Assembly (NCBI GenBank): GCA_040006935.1
Contig: JBDTVZ010000001.1
Coordinates: 103,772 to 167,771 of the forward strand
Direction of reading: 5' to 3'
DNA from: Candidatus Dojkabacteria bacterium
Lineage (GTDB): Bacteria; Patescibacteriota; Dojkabacteria; J137
DNA length: 64,000 nt
Shown here: positions 2,814-43,311 of the stretch, one piece after another
How the letters are laid out: every line of letters starts with the position of its first letter
How positions within the stretch are numbered: position 1 is the first letter of the stretch
Program-made: the position numbers and the translations under genes
Notes under the pieces: generated by a model
The model's database searches: none
What the model saw: only the letters and a program-made list of their open reading frames with translations
What the model was told of the DNA's origin: nothing

Positions 2814-3120
2814 ATTTTTTTCAATTTTAAACTTATCTATTATCCCTTTCTTTATTTGCCAATTACCTTTAACTTCGAGTTCTCTTTTTCTAGCACTAGT
2901 TTTATTTAAGTAGGTTTCAGTATAAACTAATTCATAAGGTATTCTAGACTTTGTTGATCTAACTAATCCCTTATTATGCCTTACTAATCTTGCCTCTACA
3001 TTACTAGTTATTCCGACATAATACCATTCTTTTTTATTACTTTTCAGAATATATAGAAAATACATATCTAATTATAACTTGATTACAGATTGTCACCCGA
3101 AGGGTGATCCCTTTGGGAAA
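2781..3120 (-). mobile_element. putative tRNA-Glu-associated insertion carrying the GIY-YIG gene and a regenerated tRNA 5' half
   Basis: A 340-bp segment lies between two identical 40-bp copies of the tRNA 5' half (2781-2820 and 3121-3160). It contains a UUCG-tetraloop hairpin and the GIY-YIG ORF. Confidence 0.4.
2799..3065 (-). CDS. GIY-YIG nuclease family protein (small stand-alone URI domain)
   Basis: 88 aa. YFLYILKSNKKEWYYVGITSNVEARLVRHN...VYTETY matches the GIY-YIG consensus (YxYIL..S..G..YIG.T.nl..Rl.eHn). The last 15 nt, including the TAA stop, overlap tRNA-Glu positions 1-15. Confidence 0.8.
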   Translation of the reverse strand: MYFLYILKSNKKEWYYVGITSNVEARLVRHNKGLVRSTKSRIPYELVYTETYLNKTSARKRELEVKGNWQIKKGIIDKFKIEKNGAIV

Positions 3121-3160
3121 AATCTGATGTCCTAACCGTTAGACGATAGCCCCATTTTTT
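3121..3160. repeat. 40-bp direct repeat duplicating tRNA-Glu positions 1-33 plus 7 nt of 5' flank (identical to 2781-2820); tRNA fossil
   Basis: Exact identity aatctgatgtcctaaccgttagacgatagccccatttttt at both sites. The upstream copy continues into a 25-nt hairpin insertion (CCAAAGGGATCACCCTTCGGGTGAC), then a remnant of tRNA positions 37-47, then diverges. Confidence 0.8.
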
Positions 3161-3286
3161 CTAATTCTGATTTGTATTTGCGGTGTATTATAGCGTTTTT
3201 GATTAATTTCATCAATAATTTAATGAGCATCCCTCTCCTTGAAAAGGACCTGTCTGCAACATCAATATTGTTAGCATATCTACATG

Positions 3287-3326
3287 GTCAGGCAAGGAGG
3301 GGGGACCGCTTGCGGTGGGTGAGGTC
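3287..3326. repeat. degenerate family B repeat (..GGAGGGGGGACC..GGTGGGTGAGGT)
   Basis: Shares the GGGTGAGGT 3' motif. It lies in a GC-rich island with no convincing ORF. Confidence 0.4.
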
Positions 3327-3368
3327 TAGCGCCTCAAAACCAGAAGAGTGTTTAGGCGCTCCTTTTTA
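3327..3368 (+). terminator. intrinsic terminator-like hairpin (AGCGCCT ...19 nt... AGGCGCT) followed by CCTTTTTATT
   Basis: Perfect 7-bp GC-rich stem followed by a T tract on the plus strand. It lies at the 3' end of a GC-rich, repeat-containing segment at 3230-3330. Confidence 0.45.
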
Positions 3369-3986
3369 TTAAAAACCCAAATCCTCGTTTACTAAAATAA
3401 CTTGCACTCTTCCAGGTAACATTGGAGATACATTATTTAAAATAAACAATTCTCTAACATTACTTTCTGGCATGCCGTATGCAGCTTGAACTCTTTTATT
3501 TTCCTGAGGAAGGACGTCTTCGTAGATTCTTTTTAGTCCACTATCTAAATCTTTTACAATTTTCTTTGTACTAGCAATCACAATAACTTTGTCTGCACCA
3601 TATGCTAAAGCTGGAATTTGACTTCCACTGTTACTTGCCCAAATTAGTTTCCCATCTTGTGTCACTGCATGAGTACTTACAACTGCAAATTCATGAACAC
3701 CACCTATTTTACTCATTTCTTTTTTCTGAGTGTTTCGGTCTAAAGAGTTCATTTGTGTTCTGACAGAATTATATTTTCCTGATTCATTTAATTCTTTTGT
3801 TAAACCAATTTGTTCTAGAGTTTTAGATGTCATTGTCATAACTTCAGAACCTTCTGTAATTAGTTCCAATGCTTGAGCCTTAGCTTTTTCTCCATTTTCT
3901 ACAACATATACTACAAAGCCATTTGACTTAAGACCTTCGACTGCTTTATTTACCTCATCTGAATTCGGAATTGAAACGTGATCCAT
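3369..3986 (-). CDS. LUD domain protein (LutC/YkgG-like, DUF162)
   Basis: 205 aa. GGVHEFAVVSTHAVTQDGKLIWASNSGSQIPALAYGADKVIVIASTKKIV fits the LUD pattern G.TGA.FA.AETG...SNEG....P..H...G.EK.V. Confidence 0.55.
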   Translation of the reverse strand: MDHVSIPNSDEVNKAVEGLKSNGFVVYVVENGEKAKAQALELITEGSEVMTMTSKTLEQIGLTKELNESGKYNSVRTQMNSLDRNTQKKEMSKIGGVHEFAVVSTHAVTQDGKLIWASNSGSQIPALAYGADKVIVIASTKKIVKDLDSGLKRIYEDVLPQENKRVQAAYGMPESNVRELFILNNVSPMLPGRVQVILVNEDLGF

Positions 3987-15534: not shown

Positions 15535-15561
15535 CTCCCCTAACTCCTCTTAAAAGAGGGG
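15535..15561. repeat. family B repeat, minus orientation (CCCCTCTTTTAAGAGGAGTTAGGGGAG)
   Basis: Hairpin CCTCTT-AAAA-GAGGGG followed by a G-rich motif, in the intergenic region after ORF 15075-15479. Confidence 0.5.
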
Positions 15562-18652: not shown

Positions 18653-19876
18653 CTGGAGTCTTAAAATAGCTTTCTTCACAAAATCTTGAATTTCTCTTCT
18701 TACAGTCAATTTATTTTCTAGGTTTAAATTTATATTAGAATTTACCAAATTGATAAGTTCTGTTCTGTATCGTTTTAAAAACTTATACTTTACAGAATTA
18801 ATATAAGGAATGTAATTCTTTTCGTAAATATTTGGGAAATTATTTGTATCTAAAGTTTTCGGAACTGCGATAGCAATCACTTTGAATATTCCAAAACTAG
18901 TAACTTCATGGTTCATTTTAATGGAAAATAAGGTTCCCATAATCATGTGTGGTGGAAACCCAAGTTTTACATATTCTTCCCCGTAGCAGATTGGCCAGGC
19001 AACTCCAGTTTTTTCATAGACAGTAACTTCTGAATTGATTTTATTTTGTGATCTTAAAAATGGTGAAATTCCAACATCAAAGAATACTGTGTTATTTTTC
19101 ACCGCTGAAAGTAAAGGCTCAGATTCTGCTTTTTTAACTAATCTATCAAACGCTTTAACAATATCTTTTAAGTCGCCACTATTTGCTCTAGGTTGAGTCA
19201 ATAATTTGAATCCCCCTTTATGTAGTTCCAATGTTGGAGCAAGATTAAATCCATCTAATGCTTTCTGAATTACTTCATCAGAGCCATAAATTTCTTCTAA
19301 TTTATTTCTAGCGATCTCAATGGCAGAGTTAGATGAAAGAGTTAGAGCGTTAAAACACAATTCATTTAGATCTATAGAAACTTCAGGAAAACTTTCCGCT
19401 TTCCAATTATATAAACCCACATCATTTCCTTTTAATTTTGCTCTTAATTTACTTTTTACATTTGAAATTCTATTTTTATTAAGCCAAATTATGACTTCTT
19501 TGTAATCCGGATTCTGAAGAATATGTTGATATTGCTTCCTAAAAATTAATTCTTTAACTAAATCTTTTGTTGCTTTGAATTGTTTATTCCTCTGTGTCAT
19601 TCCGACCGTGCCCGACGGCAGGCGGGACGAAGTCGAGGAACTATCAGAATTAAGTGATTTTGATAAAAGAGACATTGTAAATGGTTTTGAAGTACTAGCA
19701 AGGTTAACTATAGAGTTTTCAGTTGTCAGTTTTGAGTTATTAGAAATAACAACTCCGTCTTTCACAACAACACTTAATGTATTCCATTCATAAGTCGACC
19801 TAACATCCAATTTATAAGGATCAAATCCAGGTTTATAATTTTTGAAGAATTTTCCTAACGTTAAGTTTTTTTCCAC
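18641..19876 (-). CDS. hypothetical protein (a GC-rich repeat is inserted in frame near the N-terminus)
   Basis: Uninterrupted 411-aa ORF in an AT-rich genome. The segment SSSTSSRLPSGTVGMTQ is encoded by a family A hairpin repeat at 19595-19640. Confidence 0.5.
   Translation of the reverse strand: MEKNLTLGKFFKNYKPGFDPYKLDVRSTYEWNTLSVVVKDGVVISNNSKLTTENSIVNLASTSKPFTMSLLSKSLNSDSSSTSSRLPSGTVGMTQRNKQFKATKDLVKELIFRKQYQHILQNPDYKEVIIWLNKNRISNVKSKLRAKLKGNDVGLYNWKAESFPEVSIDLNELCFNALTLSSNSAIEIARNKLEEIYGSDEVIQKALDGFNLAPTLELHKGGFKLLTQPRANSGDLKDIVKAFDRLVKKAESEPLLSAVKNNTVFFDVGISPFLRSQNKINSEVTVYEKTGVAWPICYGEEYVKLGFPPHMIMGTLFSIKMNHEVTSFGIFKVIAIAVPKTLDTNNFPNIYEKNYIPYINSVKYKFLKRYRTELINLVNSNINLNLENKLTVRREIQDFVKKAILRLQLLF
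19595..19640. repeat. family A GC-rich hairpin repeat (TGTCATTCCGA...CGAAGTCGAGGAA), in frame inside ORF 18641-19876
   Basis: 46-bp island of about 65% GC in AT-rich coding sequence. Shares GTCATT..CGA and CGAAG termini with the other family A copies. Confidence 0.6.
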
Positions 19877-19906: not shown

Positions 19907-22468
19907 TTAAATAAGCCCCATCTGTTCCGGATGAATCTTCTTTGGCGTTTTTGGGCCACCCTTGTTGTCATTGCGAGACTCCGTCTTGGACGGAGACGAA
20001 GCAATCCCAGAATTTTCAAATTTATTCAAAATTTCATTCGCCCTCTTAGTTACCTCCACAGGAACCCCAGCAAGTTTAGCCACATGAACACCGTAACTCT
20101 TATTCGCAGATCCGGCTTCAATTTTATGAGTGAACAAAATTTCTTCTTTTTCTTTGTCATCTACAACTTTAACATTAAAATTCTTAATGCATTTATATTG
20201 TGATTCTAAAGAAATTAATTCGTGATAATGTGTTGCAAACAAAGTTTTTGCTTTTATATGTTCTTGTAAATATTCTACTATTGACCAAGCAATTGCAACT
20301 CCATCATAAGTTGAAGTTCCTCTCCCAACCTCGTCTAAAATTATTAAACTTTGACTTGTAGCATTATTTAAGATATTAGCTGTCTCTGTCATTTCTACCA
20401 TGAAAGTAGATTCTCCTTTAGATAAATTATCTGATGCTCCAACCCGTGTAAAAATTCTATCTACTATTTGGAACTTCATTTCTTTTGCTGGAACGTAACT
20501 TCCAATTTGTGCCATGAGTGTTATTAAAGCTACTTGCCTAATATAAGTAGATTTACCGGACATGTTTGGTCCTGTCAGAATATGAATTAAAGAATCCTCA
20601 GAAAATTCTGTTGAGTTTGGAATAAATTTCTCAACTAGTCTTTCTACAACTGGATGACGACCATCAGTAATCAGTGTTGAGTTATCAGTTTTCAGATTCT
20701 CTGATTTCTGAGAACTGACGACTGATGGCTTAGTATAGTTAAACTCTCTCGCTATAAATCCAAAGTTAACAATAACATCAACTTCTGCAATTGCATTTCC
20801 AACGGCTAAAAGCATTTGAGAATAATCTGCGAGTTTATTTCTAATTTCTATAAATAACTCTTGTTCTAATTTTATTAATTTCTCTTCAGCACTTAAAATT
20901 TTAACTTCTAATTCTTTTAATTCTTGAGTTATGTATCTTTCTGCATTTGCTAAAGTTTGCTTTCGAATATAATCCTCTGGGACTTTATCTAAATGAGTTC
21001 GTGTAATTTCAATGTAATACCCAAACACATTGTTGAAAGAGATTTTCAAACTTGTAATTTTAGTTCGTTCAATTTCTCGTTTCTGAATTTCCGCAAGAAT
21101 TTGTTTTGAATTTGATCTTAAATTTCTAAGTTCATCAACCTCAGCATGATATCCTGACTTCAAAATTCCTCCATTATTAATTAAAGCAGAAGGTTCGTTA
21201 TCGATTGACTTGTCAATAAAATCAATGACTTCTTTTATTTTCTCATTTTGCAATTCTCTCATTAAAAATGAAAGTCGTGTAGGTAACTCTTCTGAAGATA
21301 ATTGATTAGAAATATTAATTATATTTATCAAACTATTTTTCAAACCAACGAGGTCTTTTGGATTTGCACCACCAACTCCAATTCTTCCAACGATTCTTTC
21401 TATATCTGCAATTCGATAAAATTTATCTCTTAATTCCGAAATCAGTTGAGGTTTATTAAAAAAGAATTCTACTGAATCATGACGTTCTTTAATCATTACC
21501 ACATTTACTAAAGGATTTAAAATCCAATTTCGTAATTTTCTTTTTCCCATTGGGTTCGTAGCTCTATTAATAATAGAGTAGAGTGTTGGAGAATCGTGTC
21601 CTGAATTTGTAAATAATAATTCCAAATTTCGAATAGTTTCGAAGTCTAACTTCATGTAATCGTTAAAAGAATAACTTTGTATTCCTCTAATGTGTTTAAT
21701 ATCTCCTTTTTGACAATCTATTAAGTAACAAATTAAAGCACCGGCTGAAGTTACAATTGCAATATCTTCAGGCTTAGAATCTTTTATGGTTGATTTCTGA
21801 TTAACATTCAAACCAAAACCTTTTAACGAGCTTACTTTAAACTGTTTTTCTAAAATGATTACTGAATCTTTTAAATCAAACAATTTATCATCTAATTTCT
21901 GTAATCTGTTACCTTGAATCTTTAATATATCTTCATACTGTGAAGCCGGGCAAATTATCTCCGAAGGATTTATTTTCTTTAGCTCATTCTTAAGTGTAAT
22001 CTCAGAATTTGTTGTAAACGACTTTAGTTCCCCAGTAGTCAAATCACAAAAAACTAACCCATAACTGATGACTGATGACTGACCACTCATGACTACTGAA
22101 GCAATGTAATTATTTTTAGAAGAGTCTAAAGAATTTTCATCAATAATAGTTCCTGGTGTAATTATTTTGGTAATACTTCTTTCTACTAATTTACCAGGCA
22201 CTGCCGCTTCCATTTGTTCTGCAATAGCGATCTTGAGGCCAGCTTCAACAAGCCTAGGCATGTAATTTGGAAGAGCATGATAAGGAATTCCTGCTAAAGG
22301 TTGCCTGTTTTCATCTTTTCCTCGGCTCGTAAGCGTAATTCCTAAAACTCTAGATACTGTTTCTGCATCTTCATCAAAGGTTTCGTAAAAATCCCCAAGA
22401 CGAAATAGGATCACTGTTCCAGGATTTTCAGATTTTATTTTTTTGAACTGCTCCTGCATTGGAGTCAT
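19907..22468 (-). CDS. mutS: DNA mismatch repair protein MutS
   Basis: 853 aa. N-terminal GDFYE.F..DA mismatch-binding motif. Walker A GPNMSGKST. TH.HEL motif. The C-terminal tail contains a repeat-encoded segment. Confidence 0.9.
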   Translation of the reverse strand: MTPMQEQFKKIKSENPGTVILFRLGDFYETFDEDAETVSRVLGITLTSRGKDENRQPLAGIPYHALPNYMPRLVEAGLKIAIAEQMEAAVPGKLVERSITKIITPGTIIDENSLDSSKNNYIASVVMSGQSSVISYGLVFCDLTTGELKSFTTNSEITLKNELKKINPSEIICPASQYEDILKIQGNRLQKLDDKLFDLKDSVIILEKQFKVSSLKGFGLNVNQKSTIKDSKPEDIAIVTSAGALICYLIDCQKGDIKHIRGIQSYSFNDYMKLDFETIRNLELLFTNSGHDSPTLYSIINRATNPMGKRKLRNWILNPLVNVVMIKERHDSVEFFFNKPQLISELRDKFYRIADIERIVGRIGVGGANPKDLVGLKNSLINIINISNQLSSEELPTRLSFLMRELQNEKIKEVIDFIDKSIDNEPSALINNGGILKSGYHAEVDELRNLRSNSKQILAEIQKREIERTKITSLKISFNNVFGYYIEITRTHLDKVPEDYIRKQTLANAERYITQELKELEVKILSAEEKLIKLEQELFIEIRNKLADYSQMLLAVGNAIAEVDVIVNFGFIAREFNYTKPSVVSSQKSENLKTDNSTLITDGRHPVVERLVEKFIPNSTEFSEDSLIHILTGPNMSGKSTYIRQVALITLMAQIGSYVPAKEMKFQIVDRIFTRVGASDNLSKGESTFMVEMTETANILNNATSQSLIILDEVGRGTSTYDGVAIAWSIVEYLQEHIKAKTLFATHYHELISLESQYKCIKNFNVKVVDDKEKEEILFTHKIEAGSANKSYGVHVAKLAGVPVEVTKRANEILNKFENSGIASSPSKTESRNDNKGGPKTPKKIHPEQMGLI
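19965..20007. repeat. family A hairpin repeat (TTGTCATTGCGAGACTCCGTCTTGGACGGAGACGAAGCAATCC), in frame in the mutS 3' end
   Basis: Inner hairpin ACTCCGTC-TTG-GACGGAG. It encodes the MutS tail segment IASSPSKTESRNDNKGGP. Confidence 0.65.
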
Positions 22469-25630: not shown

Positions 25631-25676
25631 TGTCATTGCGAGTAGTCCCGAGAATCGGGACGACGTGCAATGACAA
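25631..25676. repeat. family A nested hairpin repeat (TGTCATTGCGAG-TAGTCCCGAGAATCGGGACGA-CGTGCAATGACA)
   Basis: Outer inverted repeat TGTCATTGCG / TGCAATGACA, with an inner perfect hairpin GTCCCGA-GAA-TCGGGAC. Confidence 0.7.
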
Positions 25677-25685
25677 CGAAAATAG

Positions 25686-25716
25686 TTGTCATCCTGAGCT
25701 TGTCGAAGGATAATGA
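25686..25716. repeat. family A variant (TTGTCATCCTGAGCTTGTCGAAGGATAATGA), abutting the tRNA-Asn 5' end
   Basis: GTCATCCTGAGC...CGAAGGAT resembles the widespread GTCATCCTGAGCGAAGCGAAGGATC REP-like element. Confidence 0.6.
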
Positions 25717-25785
25717 GTAGTAGCTCAATGGTAGAGCAAGCCGCTGTTAACGGCAAGGTTGTAGGTTCGAGTCCTACTTACTCAG
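25714..25785 (+). tRNA. tRNA-Asn (anticodon GUU)
   Basis: TGAGTAGTAGCTCAATGGTAGAGCAAGCCGCTGTTAACGGCAAGGTTGTAGGTTCGAGTCCTACTTACTCAG shows a cloverleaf with a CTGTTAA anticodon loop and TTCGAGT T-loop. Confidence 0.85.
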
Positions 25786-25819: not shown

Positions 25820-27142
25820 ATGTCAGATTTAATTCCAGAATCTCAAAAAGTCTATATTAAAGACTTAGGTAAATTCGTAGACAAAGATGTTAAGTTAGAA
25901 GCTTGGGTGTATAACTCTCGATCTTCAGGAAAAATTGCATTTCTCCAATTAAGAGATGGGTCAGGTTTTACGCAAGGAATTGTAGAAAAAGCAAAAGTTG
26001 GCGATGAAATTTGGGAAAAAGCAGAAAAAGCTAGTATAGAATCATCTGTATTAATTTCTGGAAGAATTAGTAAGCATCCTAAAAAAGAAGAGTTCGAAAT
26101 CCAAGTTACAGATTTGGAAGTTATAAACTCAAGTTTCGAATACCCTATTGGAAATAAGGAACATGGTCCAGAATTTCTTTTCGAGAATAGAGATTTGTAT
26201 TTAAGATCAAAAACTCCTTGGGCAGTTTTAAGAATTAGAAATCAAGTATTTTTATCTATAACTAACTTCTTTAACGAAGAAGGATTTATCCGATTTGACA
26301 CTCCTATTCTACAAGCTACATCTGCAGAAGATACCTCTCAACTTTTTAGTATGAAGTATTACGAAGATAAAATGTATCTTACTCAATCAGGACAATTATA
26401 TGCAGAAGCTGGAATCATGGGGTTTGGAAAAGTTTACGATTTTGGACCAGTATTTAGAGCAGAAAAAAGTAAGACTAGAAACCATTTATCTGAGTTCTGG
26501 ATGATGGATGCAGAAATGGCATTTTACGAACAACAAATGAATGAGGATTTACAAGAAAGATTAGTGAAAAGAATTTTAAAAGATGCATTAGAAAACTGTA
26601 AAACAGAATTAGAAATTCTAGAAAGAAACACAGAAGTATTAAAAGCTTGTGTAGAAAAACCTTTTCAAAGAATAAAGCATTTTGCTGCTAAACAACTTTT
26701 AGAAAAAGAATATGGAATGACTGTTGATTATGCAGATGATATGACTACTGAAGAAGAAATTAAAATTGGAGATCACTTTGGAGTTCCAACATTTATAGAA
26801 GATTATCCATTCGAAGTAAAGGCTTTCTATATGAAAAGCATTATTGACGAAAGAGGAATGAAGAGAGCAAAATGTGCAGATTTAATTGCACCAGAAGAAG
26901 CGAGAGAAATTATTGGAGGAAGCCAAAGAGAAGATAGTTACGAAGTTTTATTAAACGAACTTAAACAAAGAAACTATCCTGTAGAAGAATACGAATGGTA
27001 TTTGAATGTTAGAAAGTACGGAGGAGTTCCTCACGCTGGATTTGGCATTGGATTAGAAAGAACAGTGAGATGGATTTCTGGAGTACATCATATCAGAGAA
27101 ACTATTCCGTTCCCGAGAACAACAATTTTGACACGACCATAG
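25820..27142 (+). CDS. asnS: asparagine--tRNA ligase
   Basis: 440 aa class IIb aaRS. FRAEKSKTRNHLSEFWMMDAEMAF matches the AsnRS-specific motif (cf. E. coli [21 protein letters not shown]). tRNA-Asn is immediately upstream. Confidence 0.85.
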   Translation: MSDLIPESQKVYIKDLGKFVDKDVKLEAWVYNSRSSGKIAFLQLRDGSGFTQGIVEKAKVGDEIWEKAEKASIESSVLISGRISKHPKKEEFEIQVTDLEVINSSFEYPIGNKEHGPEFLFENRDLYLRSKTPWAVLRIRNQVFLSITNFFNEEGFIRFDTPILQATSAEDTSQLFSMKYYEDKMYLTQSGQLYAEAGIMGFGKVYDFGPVFRAEKSKTRNHLSEFWMMDAEMAFYEQQMNEDLQERLVKRILKDALENCKTELEILERNTEVLKACVEKPFQRIKHFAAKQLLEKEYGMTVDYADDMTTEEEIKIGDHFGVPTFIEDYPFEVKAFYMKSIIDERGMKRAKCADLIAPEEAREIIGGSQREDSYEVLLNELKQRNYPVEEYEWYLNVRKYGGVPHAGFGIGLERTVRWISGVHHIRETIPFPRTTILTRP

Positions 27143-27212
27143 ACCTCACCCGTCTCTCACTACGTTCGAGCCACCCTCTCCATCGAGGATGGAGAGGGGC
27201 TGGGGGTGAGGT
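27142..27212. repeat. family B composite nested hairpin (ACCTCACCC ... CCCTCTCCATC-GAG-GATGGAGAGGG ... GGGGGTGAGGT)
   Basis: Outer inverted repeat ACCTCACCC / GGGTGAGGT and an inner perfect 11-bp hairpin. It starts at the asnS stop codon. Confidence 0.7.
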
Positions 27213-27231
27213 AATTATTATTAAAAATTTT

Positions 27232-28074
27232 ATGAAGATATCGATTCAAGGAAACCTCGGCTCCTATTCACACATCGCGGCCGAATCCATTTTCGGTAAA
27301 GAAATAGAATTAATCGAAAGATCCGAATTTACAGAAGTTTTTGAAGATTTAAAAACCAGCACTGCTGATTACATAGTTGTTCCAATTGAAAATTCAACTC
27401 ACGGTTCTGTTTACCAAAACTACGATAACATTAGTAAATTCGATTTCCCAATCATTGGTGAAGTGTATTTACGAATTAATTTTCATTTAATTGCTCACCC
27501 AGGAACAAATATAAAAGAGATAAAAACTCTTTATTCACATCCTGTTGGTTTAAATCAAATAAAAGAATTTTTAAAAGAAAACAAACAGATTAAAGCAATT
27601 GAATTTGATGATACTGCTGGAAGTGTGAAAATGATTAAGGAAAAAAATTTAAAAGATTCTGCCGCAGCAGCAAGTAAATTAGCAGCCCAGCTTTACGCAA
27701 TGGAAATTTTAGAAGAAAATATTCATGAAAACGAAAAAAACTTCACAAGATTTTTTGTACTTTCAAAAGATGGTAAACTTCCAAAAGAGTTAAAAGATAA
27801 TCGAAACGATAAAACATCTATTCAATTCTTGCTAGGTGATGAACCGGGTTCATTATACAAAGCTTTAAGAACTTTTGCAGATAGAGATATTGCTTTAACA
27901 AAAATTGAAAGTAGGCCAATTTTACATACAGATTGGGAATATAGATTTTATGTAGATGTAACGGCGGGAATTCAAGAAGATAAAATGAAAAATGCATTAT
28001 TTGAATTGAAAAGTTATGTAAAAGAATTTAAGATTTTGGGAAGTTATAAAAAAGGGGAATATATTGAAACTTAA
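27232..28074 (+). CDS. pheA: prephenate dehydratase
   Basis: Start moved to ATG 27232 (MKISIQGNLGSYSHIAAE) because the ORF-track N-terminal extension runs through a GC-rich repeat. PDT domain plus a C-terminal ACT domain. Confidence 0.8.
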   Translation: MKISIQGNLGSYSHIAAESIFGKEIELIERSEFTEVFEDLKTSTADYIVVPIENSTHGSVYQNYDNISKFDFPIIGEVYLRINFHLIAHPGTNIKEIKTLYSHPVGLNQIKEFLKENKQIKAIEFDDTAGSVKMIKEKNLKDSAAAASKLAAQLYAMEILEENIHENEKNFTRFFVLSKDGKLPKELKDNRNDKTSIQFLLGDEPGSLYKALRTFADRDIALTKIESRPILHTDWEYRFYVDVTAGIQEDKMKNALFELKSYVKEFKILGSYKKGEYIET

Positions 28075-38937: not shown

Positions 38938-38970
38938 AAAGACTTAGATTCCTCAAGTCTTTTTAATGGC
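38938..38970. terminator. bidirectional intrinsic terminator (AAAAAGACTT-AGATTCCTC-AAGTCTTTTT)
   Basis: Hairpin flanked by an A-run and a T-run. It lies immediately 3' of the predicted rnpB on the minus strand. Confidence 0.6.
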
Positions 38971-39366
38971 CCATTCCGTAAGCCGAATTCTGTGTTTAAA
39001 AGAATAATTTCTCTATGCCCACTATGTGGTTGCTCCAGACAGGGGTTACCAGCATCCTAATATTACTATTAGAACCGGTGGTCTCTTACACTTGTCCCGT
39101 CTTGTATTTCTACAATTCAAGACAATTCCCGAAAAACGGGAACACCATTTCACAATTCCTCTTCTTCCCCCTCTCCTGTTAAGGAGAGGGTTGGGGTGAG
39201 GTTTTTCTTTCTGTTGCCCTCTTAGCTACTCGATGAGTTAGCACCCTAAGATTACTCCCAGCCGATCTCCTTTCGGATACGCGGTGTCTTTTTTTGGAGT
39301 CCGGACTTTCCTCTTGTATATATTTCAATATTACAAATATATACAAGCTATTCTTTGGAATGGACC
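38966..39366 (-). ncRNA. rnpB: RNase P RNA (bacterial type A-like)
   Basis: On the minus strand, P1 is formed by GGUCCAUUCC (5') and GGAAUGGGCC (3'). A P3 hairpin is CUUGUAUAUAU...AUAUAUACAAG. The P4 5' strand GGAAAGUCCGGACUCC matches E. coli GGAAAGUCCGGGCUCC at 15 of 16 positions. GGGCAACAGAAAG corresponds to GUGCAACAGAGAG, and GUAAGAGACCACC to GUAAGAGCGCACC. GGUAACCCCUGUCUGGAGCAACCACAUAGUGGG corresponds to GGUAAACUCCACCCGGAGCAAGGCCAAAUAGGGG, and ACAGAAUUCGGCUUAC to ACAGAACCCGGCUUAUC. A TTATAAT -10 box lies upstream and the terminator downstream. Confidence 0.85.
39167..39202. repeat. family B repeat (CCCCTCTCCTGTTAAGGAGAGGGTTGGGGTGAGGT), located within rnpB (P12 region)
   Basis: Perfect hairpin CCTCTCC-TGTTAA-GGAGAGG followed by TTGGGGTGAGGT, preceded by ACAATTCC as in the other copies. 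Confidence 0.7.
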
Positions 39367-39386
39367 AGTGTAATTATAACATGGAA

Positions 39387-39423
39387 GTGTCATTGCGGGC
39401 ACGAAGTGCGAAGTAATGACACA
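39387..39423. repeat. family A hairpin repeat (GTGTCATTGCGGGCACGAAGTGCGAAGTAATGACAC) in the rnpB upstream region
   Basis: Termini GTGTCATTGCG / GTAATGACAC form an imperfect inverted repeat. Confidence 0.6.
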
Positions 39424-39426
39424 ATT

Positions 39427-39460
39427 CCCTCTCCTTTTAAGGAGAGGGTTAAGGTGAGGT
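39427..39460. repeat. family B repeat (CCCTCTCCTTTTAAGGAGAGGGTTAAGGTGAGGT)
   Basis: Near-identical to 39167-39202 and also preceded by ACAATTCC. Confidence 0.7.
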
Positions 39461-39497
39461 CATAGCGCACCGAAAGCACACCTAATTCTGTGCGCTC

Positions 39498-39893
39498 CTA
39501 TTTAATCTCAGGATATTTACCTGGTTGTCTTAGATAAATATCAATTACTGCCTGATTATCAGGATTGACCTCATTAAACTCAACAAACGCTCTTTCTTTA
39601 AAGCCACCAGCCTTTTGTCTTTTTCTTTCCATTTCAGTTTCTAGTTGTTCTCTGGAAATTTCTAATTCTTCTAGTATTGTGTTTATTATTTCTTGAATAT
39701 CAGCCAACTCTCCCAGAATTTCTTCAGATGATGCAACTCTAAGTTCACTTGCTTCTTCTAGAAGTTTTCTTATTAGTTCTACTATAAATTCCTTAGAATC
39801 TAATTTATGCCATGTTGTCTTCTGACCTGGGTCATTCTGCATTGCTTTAATTATGTTATCTCTAACCAATTTTTTAAATTCAAATTTTCTCAT
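39498..39893 (-). CDS. MazG-like nucleotide pyrophosphohydrolase domain protein
   Basis: 131 aa. KLVRDNI...EEASEL...ELADIQEII are all-alpha NTP-PPase (MazG/PRA-PH-like) motifs. Confidence 0.55.
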   Translation of the reverse strand: MRKFEFKKLVRDNIIKAMQNDPGQKTTWHKLDSKEFIVELIRKLLEEASELRVASSEEILGELADIQEIINTILEELEISREQLETEMERKRQKAGGFKERAFVEFNEVNPDNQAVIDIYLRQPGKYPEIK

Positions 39894-40012: not shown

Positions 40013-40402
40013 TTAAGGAACTTTAATTCCTAATAAAGCGACCATTAATACCAAGAAACCAAACCCACAAAGAAAACAACCAGTTAAAATTAGCATTGCA
40101 TACCTCAATGTCAAGAAAGTTTTAAAAATATCCTGACCATGTTTTAATGTTTCTTCATCTAGCCAAAATTTTCCTTCTTTAGTTTCTTTTATACATTCTA
40201 ATTTTCTATAATACCTATCGACATAGAGATTATATTCTTCATCAGTTAATGTAATTGCTTTCTCTTCTGAGGTTGCCACTTTATCTCTAAAAAATTGAAT
40301 GGATCTTTTATCTTTAGTATAATTTGGATATACAAAGTCTATTGGTGCTTCAATTTTAGCCATTCCAAATATACTTTTTGGAGTTCCTCTTGTTTCTGCC
40401 AT
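40013..40402 (-). CDS. hypothetical protein with a C-terminal transmembrane anchor
   Basis: 129-aa ORF. Confidence 0.4.
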   Translation of the reverse strand: MAETRGTPKSIFGMAKIEAPIDFVYPNYTKDKRSIQFFRDKVATSEEKAITLTDEEYNLYVDRYYRKLECIKETKEGKFWLDEETLKHGQDIFKTFLTLRYAMLILTGCFLCGFGFLVLMVALLGIKVP

Positions 40403-40406
40403 AAAA

Positions 40407-42056
40407 TTATTTAAAAGATTTATTAAGATATTCTACAAGATCGGAGATTTTAATTCTATCTTGTTGCATTGTATCTCTATCTCGAATTGTTACTGCCTGA
40501 TCGTTTAAGGTTTCAAAATCAATTGTTACACAGTAAGGTGTTCCTACTTCATCTTGTCTTCTGTATCTTTTCCCAATTGAAGCAGTTTCATCATATTGAG
40601 TCATGTATTGTGATTTAATCATATCTTGAACTTCTAGAGCTTTTTGTTGTAATTCTGGTTTTTTAGATAAAGGTAATATTGCAACTTTGATTGGTGCTAA
40701 GGATTTTTTAAGCTTTAGTACAACTCTAGAATCTTTTTCTCCTTTGGAATTTGTTAATTCTTCTTTTGTATATGCATCTTCGAGAACCATCATTAGAATT
40801 CTATTCAACCCAACAGAGGTTTCCATAATATGAGGAACTAATCTTTCTCCAGTTTCCTGGTCAAAGTAATCTAGCTTTTCTCCAGAGAATTTTGAGTGTT
40901 GAGTTAAATCGTAATCTCCTCGATCGTGAAGTCCTTCTAATTCCTTAAATCCTCCTAAAGTTTCGTAATTATATTCAATATCAAAGGCTTGAGATGCATA
41001 GAATACTAATTTTTCGTGTTTTTTGAACCTTAATTTGTCTGGGTTAATTCCAAGTTCCTCTACATGCCATTTCATTCTAGTTTCTTTCCACATTTCAAAT
41101 AAATTTTGTTTATCTGCAGGTTTGTGAAAGTATTGCATTTCCATTTGTTCAAATTCTCTTGTTCTAAATACAAATTGACGAGCGATTATTTCGTTTCTAA
41201 ACGCTTTTCCAACTTGTGCAATTCCGAATGGTAACTTAGGCCTTAAAGTATCTCTATAATTTTTATATTCTAAATAAATTCCTTGGCAAGTTTCTCCTCT
41301 TAAATATGTAACGTTTTCTTCCGAAAAACTTGAATCTGTTGTTCCCATGTTTGATTTAACAAGAAGATTAAATGCTCTAGGTTCTGTTAAATCATTTCCT
41401 TGAGGAGACTTAATATGCAAAATTTTAATTACTTGTTCTAATTCTTTTGCCGAAGCTTTATCAAGATCAACTAATTTATTATTTGAAACTTGATTATAAA
41501 TTCTAGCGACCATCACAGGCAAAACATATTCTAAAGCATCAAGATCTTTTGTTTCCGCTTTGAAATCCTCAATGGTTAGTTCGCCACCTTGACCTTTCCT
41601 AATTAAGAAGATTGGCTCCGACCCATTAGGCCCATTATGCGATACCCATCTATTATCTAGTACTTTATATTCTTCTTGATTAACATATTCTATGAGATGT
41701 TTGACTAATGTATCGAATTCTATTTTCTCACACGCTTCTTCAACTAAATGATCAGCTCTGTATCTTGTATGTGTTTTTTTATCTTCTACTAGAACATCAT
41801 CAAATCCTCCTACGTGTCCGGATGCAACCCAAGTTTTTGGATGCATAAATATTCCAGAATCAAGCATTAAAATATCGTTTCTTTCCTGAACCATAGATTT
41901 TTCCCATGCTCTTTGGATATTATTTTTTAATAAAATTCCGTAATGTCCGTAATCGTAAACTGCAGCAAATCCTCCATAAATTTCGGAAGATGGATAAATG
42001 AATCCATTTTCTTTTGCCCAGGATTTGAACTCGTCTAGTGTTTTAAGTTTTTCCAT
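40407..42056 (-). CDS. glyQS: glycine--tRNA ligase (alpha2 homodimeric type)
   Basis: 549 aa. SSEIYGGFAAVYDYGHYGILLKNNIQRAW matches the alpha2 GlyRS N-terminus. Class II motifs and a C-terminal anticodon-binding domain are present. Confidence 0.9.
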   Translation of the reverse strand: MEKLKTLDEFKSWAKENGFIYPSSEIYGGFAAVYDYGHYGILLKNNIQRAWEKSMVQERNDILMLDSGIFMHPKTWVASGHVGGFDDVLVEDKKTHTRYRADHLVEEACEKIEFDTLVKHLIEYVNQEEYKVLDNRWVSHNGPNGSEPIFLIRKGQGGELTIEDFKAETKDLDALEYVLPVMVARIYNQVSNNKLVDLDKASAKELEQVIKILHIKSPQGNDLTEPRAFNLLVKSNMGTTDSSFSEENVTYLRGETCQGIYLEYKNYRDTLRPKLPFGIAQVGKAFRNEIIARQFVFRTREFEQMEMQYFHKPADKQNLFEMWKETRMKWHVEELGINPDKLRFKKHEKLVFYASQAFDIEYNYETLGGFKELEGLHDRGDYDLTQHSKFSGEKLDYFDQETGERLVPHIMETSVGLNRILMMVLEDAYTKEELTNSKGEKDSRVVLKLKKSLAPIKVAILPLSKKPELQQKALEVQDMIKSQYMTQYDETASIGKRYRRQDEVGTPYCVTIDFETLNDQAVTIRDRDTMQQDRIKISDLVEYLNKSFK

Positions 42057-42073
42057 ATTTTTATAATAATAAA

Positions 42074-42502
42074 TTAATAGTTAATTCCCTCCTTTATTAA
42101 AGGAGGGGTAGGGGAGGATTTAGAGCCAATCTCCTGTTTTCTGATTTCAAATTCTTTCAGCAATTTCTCTTTTATTAGTTCGATGTTACCTGTTAACTCA
42201 TGATTCCAGAACCTGATTAGCTTAATCCCTACTGATTCTAAGACAATAGTTCTATAATTATCATACTCTTCCTTTCCTTCATGAGACTCTCCATCAAGTT
42301 CTATTCCCAAAAGCAACTTATCACAATAAAAATCTAATATAAAATTATCTATTGGTTTTTGCCTCAGCCATCTATAACCTAATTTATCTCTACGTAAAAC
42401 ATAATTCCATAGTACTTGCTCTGCTTTTGTAGGTAATGATCTATTCTGCCTTGCAAAAGTTTTCAATTTCTTATCGTATGGTTTGTGATATCTATTGTTC
42501 AT
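42074..42502 (-). CDS. DUF559 (Vsr/YcjD-like) endonuclease-domain protein
   Basis: 142 aa. LPTKAEQVLWNYVLRRDKLGYRWLRQKPIDNFILDFYCDKLLLGIELDGESH...LIRFWNHEL closely matches E. coli YcjD and DUF559. The C-terminal tail is encoded by a family B repeat. Confidence 0.8.
   Translation of the reverse strand: MNNRYHKPYDKKLKTFARQNRSLPTKAEQVLWNYVLRRDKLGYRWLRQKPIDNFILDFYCDKLLLGIELDGESHEGKEEYDNYRTIVLESVGIKLIRFWNHELTGNIELIKEKLLKEFEIRKQEIGSKSSPTPPLIKEGINY
42083..42119. repeat. family B repeat, plus orientation (AATTCCCTCCTTTATTAAAGGAGGGGTAGGGGAGGAT), overlapping the 3' end of the DUF559 gene
   Basis: Hairpin CCCTCCTTTA / TAAAGGAGGG followed by a G-rich tail. Confidence 0.65.
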
Positions 42503-42507
42503 AAAAA

Positions 42508-42545
42508 ATCCCTCCCTGCCCTCCCTTTTACAAAGGGAGGGATTA
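42508..42545. repeat. family B repeat, minus orientation (revcomp AATCCCTCCCTTTGTAAAAGGGAGGGCAGGGAGGGAT), immediately upstream of the DUF559 start codon
   Basis: Inverted relative to 42083-42119. Together the two copies bracket the gene. Confidence 0.65.
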
Positions 42546-42752
42546 TAAAACTCACTACAATAACAAAAAAAGTCGTCTCAGAATAAAAATTAATTTACTC
42601 TGGGACGACTCTTTTAACAAGCTTGCCGCGGTTCCACCCATTTTTCTCGAATCCGAGACTCTTTATATTAAGTTTTATCAAAAGCATGCCATTGCTTTAC
42701 TACAGAAATTATACAATACCAATTATGGTATTGCAATTTCTGTTAGTTTAGC

Positions 42753-42923
42753 TTACATAGTTGGTGCAGCTGGAGTTGGTTCCATTGGTGCTGGCATTGT
42801 AGTATCCATCTTACATGTGCATCCTTCGCAATTGCATCCTTCAGGTGAATTCATGTGACTGCAAGCAGCACAATTCATATCTGTCGAACATTCTGCGCAT
42901 GAGCAAGTACATCCTCCTTCCAT
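42753..42923 (-). CDS. small Cys-rich metallothionein-like protein (56 aa, below the ORF-track cutoff)
   Basis: Minus-strand ORF MEGGCTCSCAECSTDMNCAACSHMNSPEGCNCEGCTCKMDTTMPAPMEPTPAAPTM. It has 13 Cys arranged as CxC and CxxC pairs, and its codon usage is GC-richer than that of its neighbours. Confidence 0.45.
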   Translation of the reverse strand: MEGGCTCSCAECSTDMNCAACSHMNSPEGCNCEGCTCKMDTTMPAPMEPTPAAPTM

Positions 42924-42984
42924 ATATATAAAATAATAAATATATAATTATATTTAACCACTTTAACTAAATTTTTACAACATA

Positions 42985-43311
42985 CTACTGCTCGCCGTAA
43001 AACCTTGGGCTGGAATGTTCATATGAAAATGCAATACCTTTTACAAAACTTTTAGGACCAACTTCCGTAATTACTGAAAATCCTGAATTTATAATTATTT
43101 TCTCTATTTCTTTATATTCTGTAATATTATTTTTATACTTCAAGTTGAGATAACTGATCAGGCTGGGATAACCAGTTTGTTCGGGTAAACCTAGATTCTT
43201 AATTAATTGAATAAAAGCAGATTCCTCGATCTCATATGGATCAATATCTGACATATGAACTGCTGTTTCTGGAGTCCCGGTTACTTCTACATCTAGTAGT
43301 TGAACTGCCAT
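42985..43311 (-). CDS. hypothetical protein
   Basis: 108-aa ORF. Confidence 0.35.
   Translation of the reverse strand: MAVQLLDVEVTGTPETAVHMSDIDPYEIEESAFIQLIKNLGLPEQTGYPSLISYLNLKYKNNITEYKEIEKIIINSGFSVITEVGPKSFVKGIAFSYEHSSPRFYGEQ

Follow-up and report, generated by a model that had tools for sequence, protein, structure and literature searches.

The 64,000 nucleotides of the Candidatus Dojkabacteria contig JBDTVZ010000001.1 analysed here (positions 103,772 to 167,771, hereafter the window) carry dispersed, G+C-rich structured repeats. These repeats are almost certainly members of the family known in Escherichia coli as BoxC, PIT or TMECO, which is thereby placed in a genome of the Candidate Phyla Radiation (CPR). 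Two of the copies flank, as inverted repeats, a gene for a YcjD-like nuclease of the DUF559 family, and BoxC copies bracket a DUF559 gene at many other loci as well. On balance we favour, as the best explanation of these data, the family identity taken together with a selfish-cassette mechanism.

Relationship of the repeats to BoxC/PIT/TMECO

The BoxC sequence of E. coli was re-described first as PIT (“potential intrastrand triplex”) and later, by Holder et al. (2015), under the name TMECO, with totals of 23 copies for MG1655 and 3610 for a set of 262 proteobacterial genomes (PMC4666352). Salmonella is reported to lack TMECO. The same motif was treated as a G-quadruplex/hairpin/duplex switch, HPGQ, by Kaplan et al. 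(2016; PMC5100583). The published TMECO pattern is CCCTCNCCC-N3-6-GGGNGAGGG-N3-GGGNGAGGG, with one mismatched triplet allowed (PMC4666352). The BoxC-like unit found in the window is about 32-37 nt long and is built of a C-rich arm, a loop, a complementary G-rich arm closing the hairpin and, 2-5 nt further on, a second G-rich arm like the first.

For comparison with the known family, a covariance model (R1) was constructed from 12 E. coli K-12 TMECO copies only, and the window was searched with it with filters off. Its best match in the window, at 39169-39203, scored 33.7 bits (E = 3.6e-7), followed by 39427-39461 (30.2 bits, E = 2.9e-6), 27174-27213 (15.8 bits, E = 0.016) and 42509-42541 on the minus strand (14.4 bits, E = 0.038). 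The match at 42087-42119 (9.9 bits, E = 0.58) is weak taken alone. Since a model that contains only E. coli sequences detects the window copies, these can be regarded as members of the family.

The published pattern fits the window copies in part. The copy at 39169-39203 reads CCCTCTCCT-GTTA-AGGAGAGGG-TTG-GGGTGAGGT and agrees with the pattern in 8/9 positions per arm, with a loop of 4 and a spacer of 3 nt. The copy at 39427-39461 agrees in 8/9, 8/9 and 7/9 positions and has the spacer TTA, which is also the spacer of the E. coli “type A” copies. The copy at 27174-27213 agrees in 8/9 positions per arm and has a 5-nt spacer, and those at 42086 and 42510 have shortened CCCTCC(C) arms. No window copy matches the published pattern literally, because every arm falls one position short on its inner side; in the 39169 copy this position changes C-G to T-A, with pairing kept.

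Three arms, a near-identical sequence (CCCTCTCC-loop-GGAGAGGG-TTA/TTG-GGTGAGG), dispersal over mostly intergenic sites in both orientations and in inverted pairs, and a variable copy number are shared by the window copies and BoxC. The differences concern the arms (7-8 nt in the window, 9-10 nt in known copies), the A/T-rich loops of the window copies and the host, which is a Patescibacteria genome of ~32% GC, whereas the known hosts are proteobacteria or cyanobacteria. TMECO was described as always intergenic, while the window has one copy inside the RNase P RNA gene rnpB and one overlapping the end of an open reading frame (ORF). Also, no association with transposases, integrases, phages or plasmids was reported for TMECO and its origin was left unanswered (PMC4666352), in contrast to the bracketing of a DUF559 nuclease gene seen here and at many other loci.

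The motif is widespread. Scanning one genome per species with CCCTCTCC-N3-14-GGAGAGGG-N1-7-GGTGAGG, which specifies 23 bases, yielded at least 120 stretches in species-representative genomes, against a chance estimate of about one match. Hosts among the matches listed are Melioribacteraceae (Ignavibacteriota), Pseudomonas, Xanthomonas, Enterobacteriaceae, Acinetobacter and rhizobia, along with Cyanobacteria, Chloroflexota, Planctomycetota, Verrucomicrobiota and others. The flanking sequences show no relationship from one genome to the next, the ~32-nt motif being all that they share. The 23-base motif is frequent in IMG/VR viral contigs, too (at least 120 stretches). A preliminary description of the window repeats, made from the sequence alone, had named confinement of the motif to the window and low-complexity coincidence as the outcomes that would speak against it; the occurrence of the exact pattern in many phyla contradicts both.

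Two variations of the motif were noted in passing. In proteobacterial BoxC (L015, L031, L045, L098, L203, L208 and other loci) an extra CGGTC, often TCGGTCGGTC, is located directly 5' of the C-arm, and in Pseudomonas the motif forms part of longer units, about 150 bp each, that are repeated in tandem.

Association of BoxC with DUF559 genes

The product of the DUF559 gene in the window matches Pfam PF04480 at 3.1e-28 over a domain that ends at residue 118, has the E. coli YcjD model PRK09767 as its best NCBIfam match (1.1e-19) and matches PDB 3HRL (1.8e-17). All residues invariant across eight aligned DUF559 homologues are kept in it. The catalytic residues would be those of the conserved motif D...ExDG..H. 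PADLOC defence-system models gave no meaningful match for this protein. The third arm of the upstream BoxC copy ends 6 nt before the DUF559 ATG, which places GGAGG at Shine-Dalgarno distance, and the downstream copy encodes the final ~16 residues of the protein (...SKSSPTPPLIKEGINY*). Together the copies at 42083-42119 and 42508-42545 form inverted flanks of the gene.

No other DUF559 genes or gene fragments were found in the window, so the remaining copies are solo. The copies flanking DUF559 are of the CCCTCC(C)/GGGAGG subtype and the solo copies at 27174, 39169 and 39427 are of the CCCTCTCC/GGTGAGGT subtype. The latter subtype flanks the DUF559 gene of another Dojkabacteria metagenome-assembled genome (L216).

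Both the linkage and its geometry are conserved outside the window. With the motif as the starting point, a DUF559 gene lies no more than 130 nt away in 6 of the 120 genome stretches listed; at L004, L030 and L081 the gene has a sense copy upstream and an antisense copy downstream, as in the window. DUF559 proteins at such motif-anchored loci end in BoxC-encoded tails, e.g., ...SPSP or ...PLPEGEG.

With the gene as the starting point, 80 metagenome loci were collected using protein only, the query being a DUF559 alignment trimmed to the domain. This alignment comprised four sequences, as an eight-sequence one was too diverse, and the sample is biased to proteobacterial-type relatives. Allowing one substitution per arm of the motif, we found a sense copy within 150 nt upstream at 50/73 loci, an antisense copy within 150 nt downstream at 60/77 and both flanking copies at 42/70. 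The density of the motif was 5.79 per kb within 200 nt of DUF559 and 0.094 per kb beyond 1 kb, a 62-fold difference. The copies around one DUF559 gene share loop and arm variants within the locus.

The closest homologues of the window protein come from SR1, Absconditabacterales, Dojkabacteria and Zambryskibacteria. In the contexts of these CPR relatives a BoxC-like copy is present upstream in 4/4 and downstream in 3/4 cases, two of them having a variant with a mini-hairpin in the spacer.

In E. coli K-12 the sole DUF559 gene, ycjD, ends in ...RRSPSP* within a degenerate BoxC and has BoxC copies on its downstream side only. TMECO #9 is located 168 bp downstream of ycjD, an arrangement with an estimated chance probability of about 0.003. 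The same locus (L122, MG1655 1351040-1351830) has a ~50-nt duplicate of the ycjD 3' end between ycjD and TMECO #9, as well as a perfect 15-bp palindrome (CACCTCATTCTGACA...TGTCAGAATGAGGTG) just upstream of ycjD. At three metagenome loci (L132, L135, L148) canonical BoxC copies beside DUF559 alternate with a sister motif, CCCTTCCCCC-loop-GGGGGAAGGG-CT-GGGGATG, which suggests that several BoxC subtypes co-exist.

Discreteness of the cassette and polymorphism of solo copies

Two loci from different metagenomes (L160 and L190) share 83% identity over exactly 453 bp, AG-CCCTCTCC...DUF559...GGAGAGGG-CT, and outside this span their identity is at random level. The limits of homology lie within 2-3 nt of the outer C-arm ends of both inverted copies, as is characteristic of terminal inverted repeats. 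Since the homology is confined to these 453 bp, the cassette forms a unit of its own, which is delimited by the outer C-arm ends and occurs in unrelated contexts.

Solo copies, in turn, show presence/absence polymorphism. Between pstB and pstA of E. coli a 92-bp segment with TMECO #19 is present in 2099/5426 genomes, and among the others most of the strains listed are exactly 92 bp shorter. The absence is a clean 92 bp in both pstB-pstA sequences that were aligned, one of them from a strain in which the query matched only once. The filled allele carries the 8-bp direct repeat AACCGTGT at its left junction, directly after the motif, and at its right junction. The yjdP-phnP spacer has filled (two hairpins), half-filled (one BoxC) and empty alleles, the junctions of which overlap C-arm-like microhomology. 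The zntA-tusA spacer was rejected as a filled/empty pair: its copy is present in nearly all E. coli, and the lone strain lacking it has a complex rearrangement with an unrelated membrane ORF.

TMECO numbers published for named E. coli strains can be compared with the presence of ycjD by phylogroup, to which we presume the strains to belong. Strains of phylogroups A, B1 and C have 19-30 TMECOs, those of B2 have 0-2 and those of E, D and F have 6-15 (Holder Table S1/S7, PMC4666352). The site between sapF and fabI is occupied by ycjD in phylogroups A, B1 and C and by eefRABCD in B2; the strains sampled from phylogroups E, D and F carry eefRABCD and not ycjD, except ST69 and ST182 (PMC12817139). 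These counts and the presence of ycjD fit the cassette model.

Repeat copies in the window

The GC content of the window is low (29-36%), which makes G+C-rich repeat motifs conspicuous. CCCTCTCC-N(3-30)-GGAGAGGG was observed three times (0.00 expected) and GGAGAGGG alone seven times (0.61 expected). A generic scan for three arms (pyrimidine arm, loop, complementary arm and G-rich third arm) detected five copies in the window and none in 100 shuffles of the sequence, so the preliminary description was correct in postulating a dispersed G+C-rich structured repeat family. Seven copies had been listed there, of which these five are robust (Table 1).

Table 1. BoxC-like copies and associated genes in the window.
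Feature	Position	Strand	Remarks
Degenerate or variant copy (probable)	3231-3326	+	C-arm 3231-3238, 47-nt insert, G-arm GGAGGGGGG, 12-nt mini-hairpin, third arm GGGTGAGGT
Doubtful relic	15535-15561	-	CCCCTCT-TTTA-AGAGGAG-TTA-GGGGAG
Double-sided (“nested”) BoxC	27143..27213	+	fills asnS-pheA spacer
Robust copy within the double-sided BoxC	27174-27213	+	three-arm scan; fold
rnpB, bacterial RNase P RNA class A	38963..39367	-	Rfam RF00010, 101.8 bits, E = 5.4e-30, full-length
BoxC inside rnpB	39167..39203	+ (antisense to RNA)	distal part of helix P12
Robust copy (same site)	39169-39203	+	three-arm scan; R1
Solo BoxC	39427..39461	+	between rnpB and upstream minus-strand ORF
Robust copy (same site)	39427-39461	+	three-arm scan; R1
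YcjD-like DUF559 (Vsr-like PD-(D/E)XK) nuclease gene, 142 aa	42074..42502	-	PF04480
BoxC variant	42083..42119	+	overlaps 3' end of DUF559 ORF, antisense to gene
Robust copy (same site)	42086-42118	+	three-arm scan
BoxC variant CCCTCCC / GGGAGGG / GGGAGGGA	42508..42545	-	just upstream of DUF559 gene, sense
Robust copy (same site)	42510-42542	-	three-arm scan

The other two listed copies are less regular. The one at 3287-3326 has no adjacent C-arm, the closest CCCTCTCC being 47 nt upstream at 3231, and R1 did not detect the whole 3231-3326 arrangement. It is probably a true variant of the family, because the same layout with a mini-hairpin in the spacer is found beside DUF559 genes at the CPR loci L215 and L219. 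Membership of 15535-15561 is doubtful: its stem has only 5 bp, its fold is not better than that of shuffles (z = -0.46), and neither R1 nor the three-arm scan found it.

Five of the seven copies are on the plus strand and two on the minus strand, with one inverted pair and one double-sided copy among them. With respect to the flanking genes, the copies at 27142 and 42508 are sense and those at 39167, 39427, 42083, 15535 and 3287 are antisense. Two copies are not strictly intergenic (the one in P12 of rnpB and the one at the 3' end of an ORF). The BoxC literature likewise reports no bias in orientation or in the function of neighbouring genes. As had been proposed, these mixed orientations exclude a simple terminator role. 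An intrinsic terminator would be a GC-rich hairpin with a U-run right behind it, encoded on the same strand as the upstream gene, and there is no T-run directly after the motif at any copy. In 39000-39600 and 3000-3450 terminator-like sites do not coincide with the copies and were found only beside them. Rfam at gathering thresholds found no RNA family at any copy in the window, matching only rnpB and two tRNAs.

Two of the terminator-like hairpins are similar to each other (TAGCGC...GCGCTCC with a T-run) and follow two BoxC copies on the plus strand, at 3328-3372 and 39462-39500. The genes neighbouring them are on the minus strand, and small plus-strand transcripts containing BoxC may be produced at these sites.

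The largest copy begins right after the asnS stop codon (TAG, 27140-27142) and takes up nearly all of the 89-nt spacer which separates it from the pheA ATG (27232). It consists of ACCTCACCC (27143-27151), a 22-nt spacer, CCCTCTCCATC-GAG-GATGGAGAGGG (27174-27198), GCTGG and GGGTGAGGT (27204-27212). The sequence agrees with its earlier depiction as an 11-bp hairpin inside a 9-bp outer repeat: the inner stem CCCTCTCCATC/GATGGAGAGGG pairs without mismatch over 11 bp, as does the outer inverted repeat over 9 bp, since GGGTGAGGT complements 27143-27151. In other words, the element has a third arm on both sides. Its RNA fold has an energy of -39.4 kcal/mol (z = -3.9), and 0/200 shuffles are as good. 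“Nested”, a term the preliminary description gave to the whole family, applies to this copy and to no other in the window; the double-sided form recurs at L002, L010, L058 and L076. The suspected spurious extension of pheA through the repeat is also real. The translation of ORF 27070-28074 contains ...SSHPLHRGWRGAGGEVIIIKNFMKISI, with the spurious extension ...HPLHRGWRGAGGEV..., while the prephenate dehydratase domain begins at residue 3 of the form starting at ATG-27232 and NCBI annotates a 280-aa pheA product. On the other side of asnS (25820-27142), tRNA-Asn(GTT) (25714-25785) is located directly upstream of this gene for its own synthetase.

At the RNase P RNA gene, the Rfam alignment shows ~22 nt of the internal BoxC copy as inserted in P12 when compared with the class A consensus. 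This helix is peripheral and variable in RNase P RNA, and an insertion there should therefore be tolerated. The rnpB score of 101.8 bits barely exceeds the Rfam gathering score of 100. The solo copy at 39427-39461 folds with -19.4 kcal/mol (z = -4.0). ACAATTCC, supposed to precede several copies, precedes just these two, at 39152 (10 nt from the copy, within the RNase P core) and at 39421, and none of the others. It was rejected as a part of the element. The ACAATTCC-BoxC stretch at 39421-39461, 260 nt off, resembles a partial duplicate of the P12 region of rnpB.

A second GC-rich hairpin family, starting with GTCATT(G/C)CG (e.g., GTCATTGCGAGTAGTCCCGAGAATCGGGACGACGTGCAATGAC), is present in the window at 19596-19640, 19967-20002, 25632-25674 and 39387-39422, its exact 9-mer having four occurrences. 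One of these copies lies just upstream of tRNA-Asn and another abuts BoxC at 39427.

Possible origin and spread of BoxC

We regard the arguments as evenly poised on whether the BoxC family constitutes the terminal repeats of a small selfish DUF559 cassette. More tentatively, and with slightly less confidence, BoxC/PIT/TMECO could represent the terminal inverted repeats and gene-less derivatives of an unrecognised pan-bacterial selfish element, whose only gene codes for a YcjD-like DUF559 (Vsr-fold) nuclease and which reaches streamlined CPR genomes and can lodge in RNase P RNA. The cassette would consist of a sense BoxC, the nuclease gene and an antisense BoxC. Solo copies, inverted pairs and double-sided copies would be its non-autonomous derivatives, similar to miniature inverted-repeat transposable elements (MITEs) or REPINs, inserted in intergenic spacers, gene ends and, here, a dispensable helix of RNase P RNA. 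The DUF559 nuclease may recognise the three-arm hairpin, either as a cruciform or in single-stranded DNA, and cut there. Repair or copying after the cleavage would spread the element, i.e., the cassette itself and, in trans, its gene-less copies, so that DUF559 would be the driver of mobility. Conservation of the third arm, which the hairpin can dispense with, speaks in favour of a protein that recognises the motif, or of an unusual structure being recognised.

We can also speculate that the third arm of the upstream copy doubles as the ribosome-binding site of DUF559 and that alternate pairing of the C-arm with either G-arm tunes translation. The minimum-energy fold of 42504-42550 shows such an alternative C-arm/G-arm pairing. 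A start codon is located 6-16 nt after the motif at 13 of the 28 scorable metagenome loci (22/50 have no assignable start), which is only suggestive of the third arm being a general Shine-Dalgarno sequence. A GTG within the third arm was considered as the DUF559 start and rejected, since it is in frame in only 8/39 loci.

A number of facts weigh against a DUF559-driven cassette. To our knowledge, neither cleavage nor binding nor transposition has been demonstrated for any DUF559 protein, and we know of no PD-(D/E)XK nuclease that performs strand transfer by itself. The L160/L190 cassette has no clear target-site duplication, and the direct repeats at pstB-pstA could equally have arisen by deletion between microhomologies. 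In the window, the difference between the solo and flanking subtypes means that the flanks of the resident gene are probably not the direct source of the solo copies. The downstream copy at one CPR locus (L220) is direct, not inverted. In E. coli, ycjD is single-copy and occupies one fixed site in 3378 genomes, while one 59-nt BoxC query matched 4161 genomes, so at least 783 BoxC-positive genomes lack ycjD. Strains of phylogroups E, D and F have their 6-15 TMECOs though the sampled strains are mostly without ycjD, and the phylogroup correlation involves very few independent events. The linkage is limited as well: among DUF559 loci of viral contigs BoxC flanks are present at 3/31, the closest ones, and 18 high-GC DUF559 loci (32-40% identity) have no BoxC flanks. 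As the query used for the 80 metagenome loci was itself BoxC-associated and retrieved its best matches, the 60-78% figures hold for the YcjD-like clade only. Judging by the sequences compared, the link appears to be specific to this subfamily and not to all PF04480.

Of the other explanations, a structural role deserves most attention, although we consider it unlikely. According to it, BoxC is a host-maintained motif (a triplex or a G-quadruplex/hairpin switch) that promotes local instability or regulation, and DUF559 is a structure-specific processing nuclease, the gene of which carries the motif for autoregulation or by seeding; spread would occur via slippage or recombination, not through DUF559. 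In vitro the isolated strand indeed adopts a stable triplex, and TMECO loci vary more than control loci between E. coli strains (PMC4666352), while circular dichroism revealed a G-quadruplex/hairpin switch (PMC5100583). GGGAGAGGG-NN-GGGGTGAGGG shows four G-tracts, and both the conservation of the hairpin-dispensable third arm and the microhomology at filled-site junctions are compatible with such a role. However, in vivo dimethyl sulphate footprinting gave no evidence of a triplex (PMC4666352), in earlier studies PIT elements had no promoter, terminator or replication effect in vivo, and the window versions, with their two-G tracts (GGAGAGGG..GGTGAGG), would make poor G-quadruplexes. Slippage can account neither for a sharp-edged 453-bp gene-bearing unit in unrelated contexts nor for near-identical motifs across distant phyla. 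A Vsr-like catalytic domain is used by one homing endonuclease family (I-Bth0305I), and gene-less inverted BoxC pairs, 16-27 nt apart, exist (five pairs in E. coli K-12) in the same plus-then-minus order as the DUF559 flanks. DUF559 could then be a homing-type endonuclease gene inserting between BoxC pairs that spread by other means. We find this improbable, because the homology between L160 and L190 takes in both BoxC copies to their outer edges and the flanking copies co-vary within a locus, both of which fit the movement of one unit better.

It is decidedly improbable that the copies act in RNA as terminators, mRNA stabilisers or translational operators. Their hairpins are strong (-14 to -39 kcal/mol), the third arm precedes the DUF559 start at the distances given above in the window and at other loci, and plus-strand terminator-like hairpins follow two copies. 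Such action is difficult to reconcile with the mixed orientation, the missing U-run, the inactivity of PIT elements as promoters or terminators, the copy inside a structural RNA and the GTG starts that are mostly out of frame. Programmed inversion of the DUF559 gene by its BoxC flanks, working as an on/off switch, has hardly any probability in our estimate. “DUF559 domain-containing protein” is enriched among predicted targets of programmed inversion with an odds ratio of 14.3 (PMC9881135). This prediction starts from inverted repeats at gene ends, and BoxC flanks would produce such an enrichment. The repeats are only about 35 bp long, and no invertase gene is present among the six cassette-neighbouring ORFs scanned against Pfam (40013-43311). 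Inversion leaves the solo copies, which are the majority, without an explanation; nor is their excess accounted for by homing or by action in RNA. The selfish DUF559 cassette would provide for them as its gene-less derivatives.

Significance and comparison with known systems

The repeat itself is already known, and its occurrence in Dojkabacteria is a host-range extension, worth attention for the small host genome and for the copy inside an essential ribozyme gene. The BoxC-DUF559-BoxC architecture appears to be a new observation on an old element, since no mobility function has been reported near TMECO (PMC4666352) and we found no paper linking DUF559 or ycjD with repeats, inverted repeats, BoxC or TMECO, in a literature search of incomplete coverage that leaves an earlier description possible. 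BoxC/PIT/TMECO has been known for some 30 years. DUF559/YcjD proteins are widespread and their structure has been solved (PDB 3HRL), but no function has been assigned to them. The link between them offers a candidate substrate for YcjD and a candidate mobilising or processing enzyme for BoxC, and may explain how BoxC spreads. It would also give a reason why BoxC number differs between strains and why, in E. coli, ycjD has replaced eefRABCD. For annotation, it should be kept in mind that BoxC spuriously prolongs ORFs and leaves annotated proteins with odd tails at the C-terminus (...SPSP, ...PLP-GEG...).

Rickettsia palindromic elements are structured repeats of a small genome which are inserted in RNA genes and the ends of protein genes without destroying them, and the BoxC copies in an RNA gene and at a gene end described here resemble them in this respect. 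These elements are 100-150 bp long, lineage-restricted and unrelated to BoxC in sequence, and no associated nuclease gene is known to us.

MITEs derived from insertion sequences have, in the autonomous form, terminal inverted repeats around a gene; like BoxC, they show abundant gene-less pairs and presence/absence polymorphism, and short direct repeats were seen at one of the BoxC sites compared (pstB-pstA). BoxC differs in having no DDE or other known transposase, in the commonness of single copies (half elements) and in lacking an established target-site duplication.

The REP/RAYT system (REPINs, “REPtrons”) differs from BoxC in its enzyme, an IS200/IS605-type Y1 transposase, whereas the gene flanked here is PF04480 DUF559 / PRK09767, i.e., a Vsr-like PD-(D/E)XK nuclease for which no transposition chemistry is known; the third arm is peculiar to BoxC. 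In both systems short GC-rich palindromic repeats are mostly solo or in inverted pairs, and a single-copy gene for the cognate enzyme is flanked by inverted copies of the repeat. REP/RAYT can therefore be considered the closest analogy for the way in which BoxC and DUF559 may work together.

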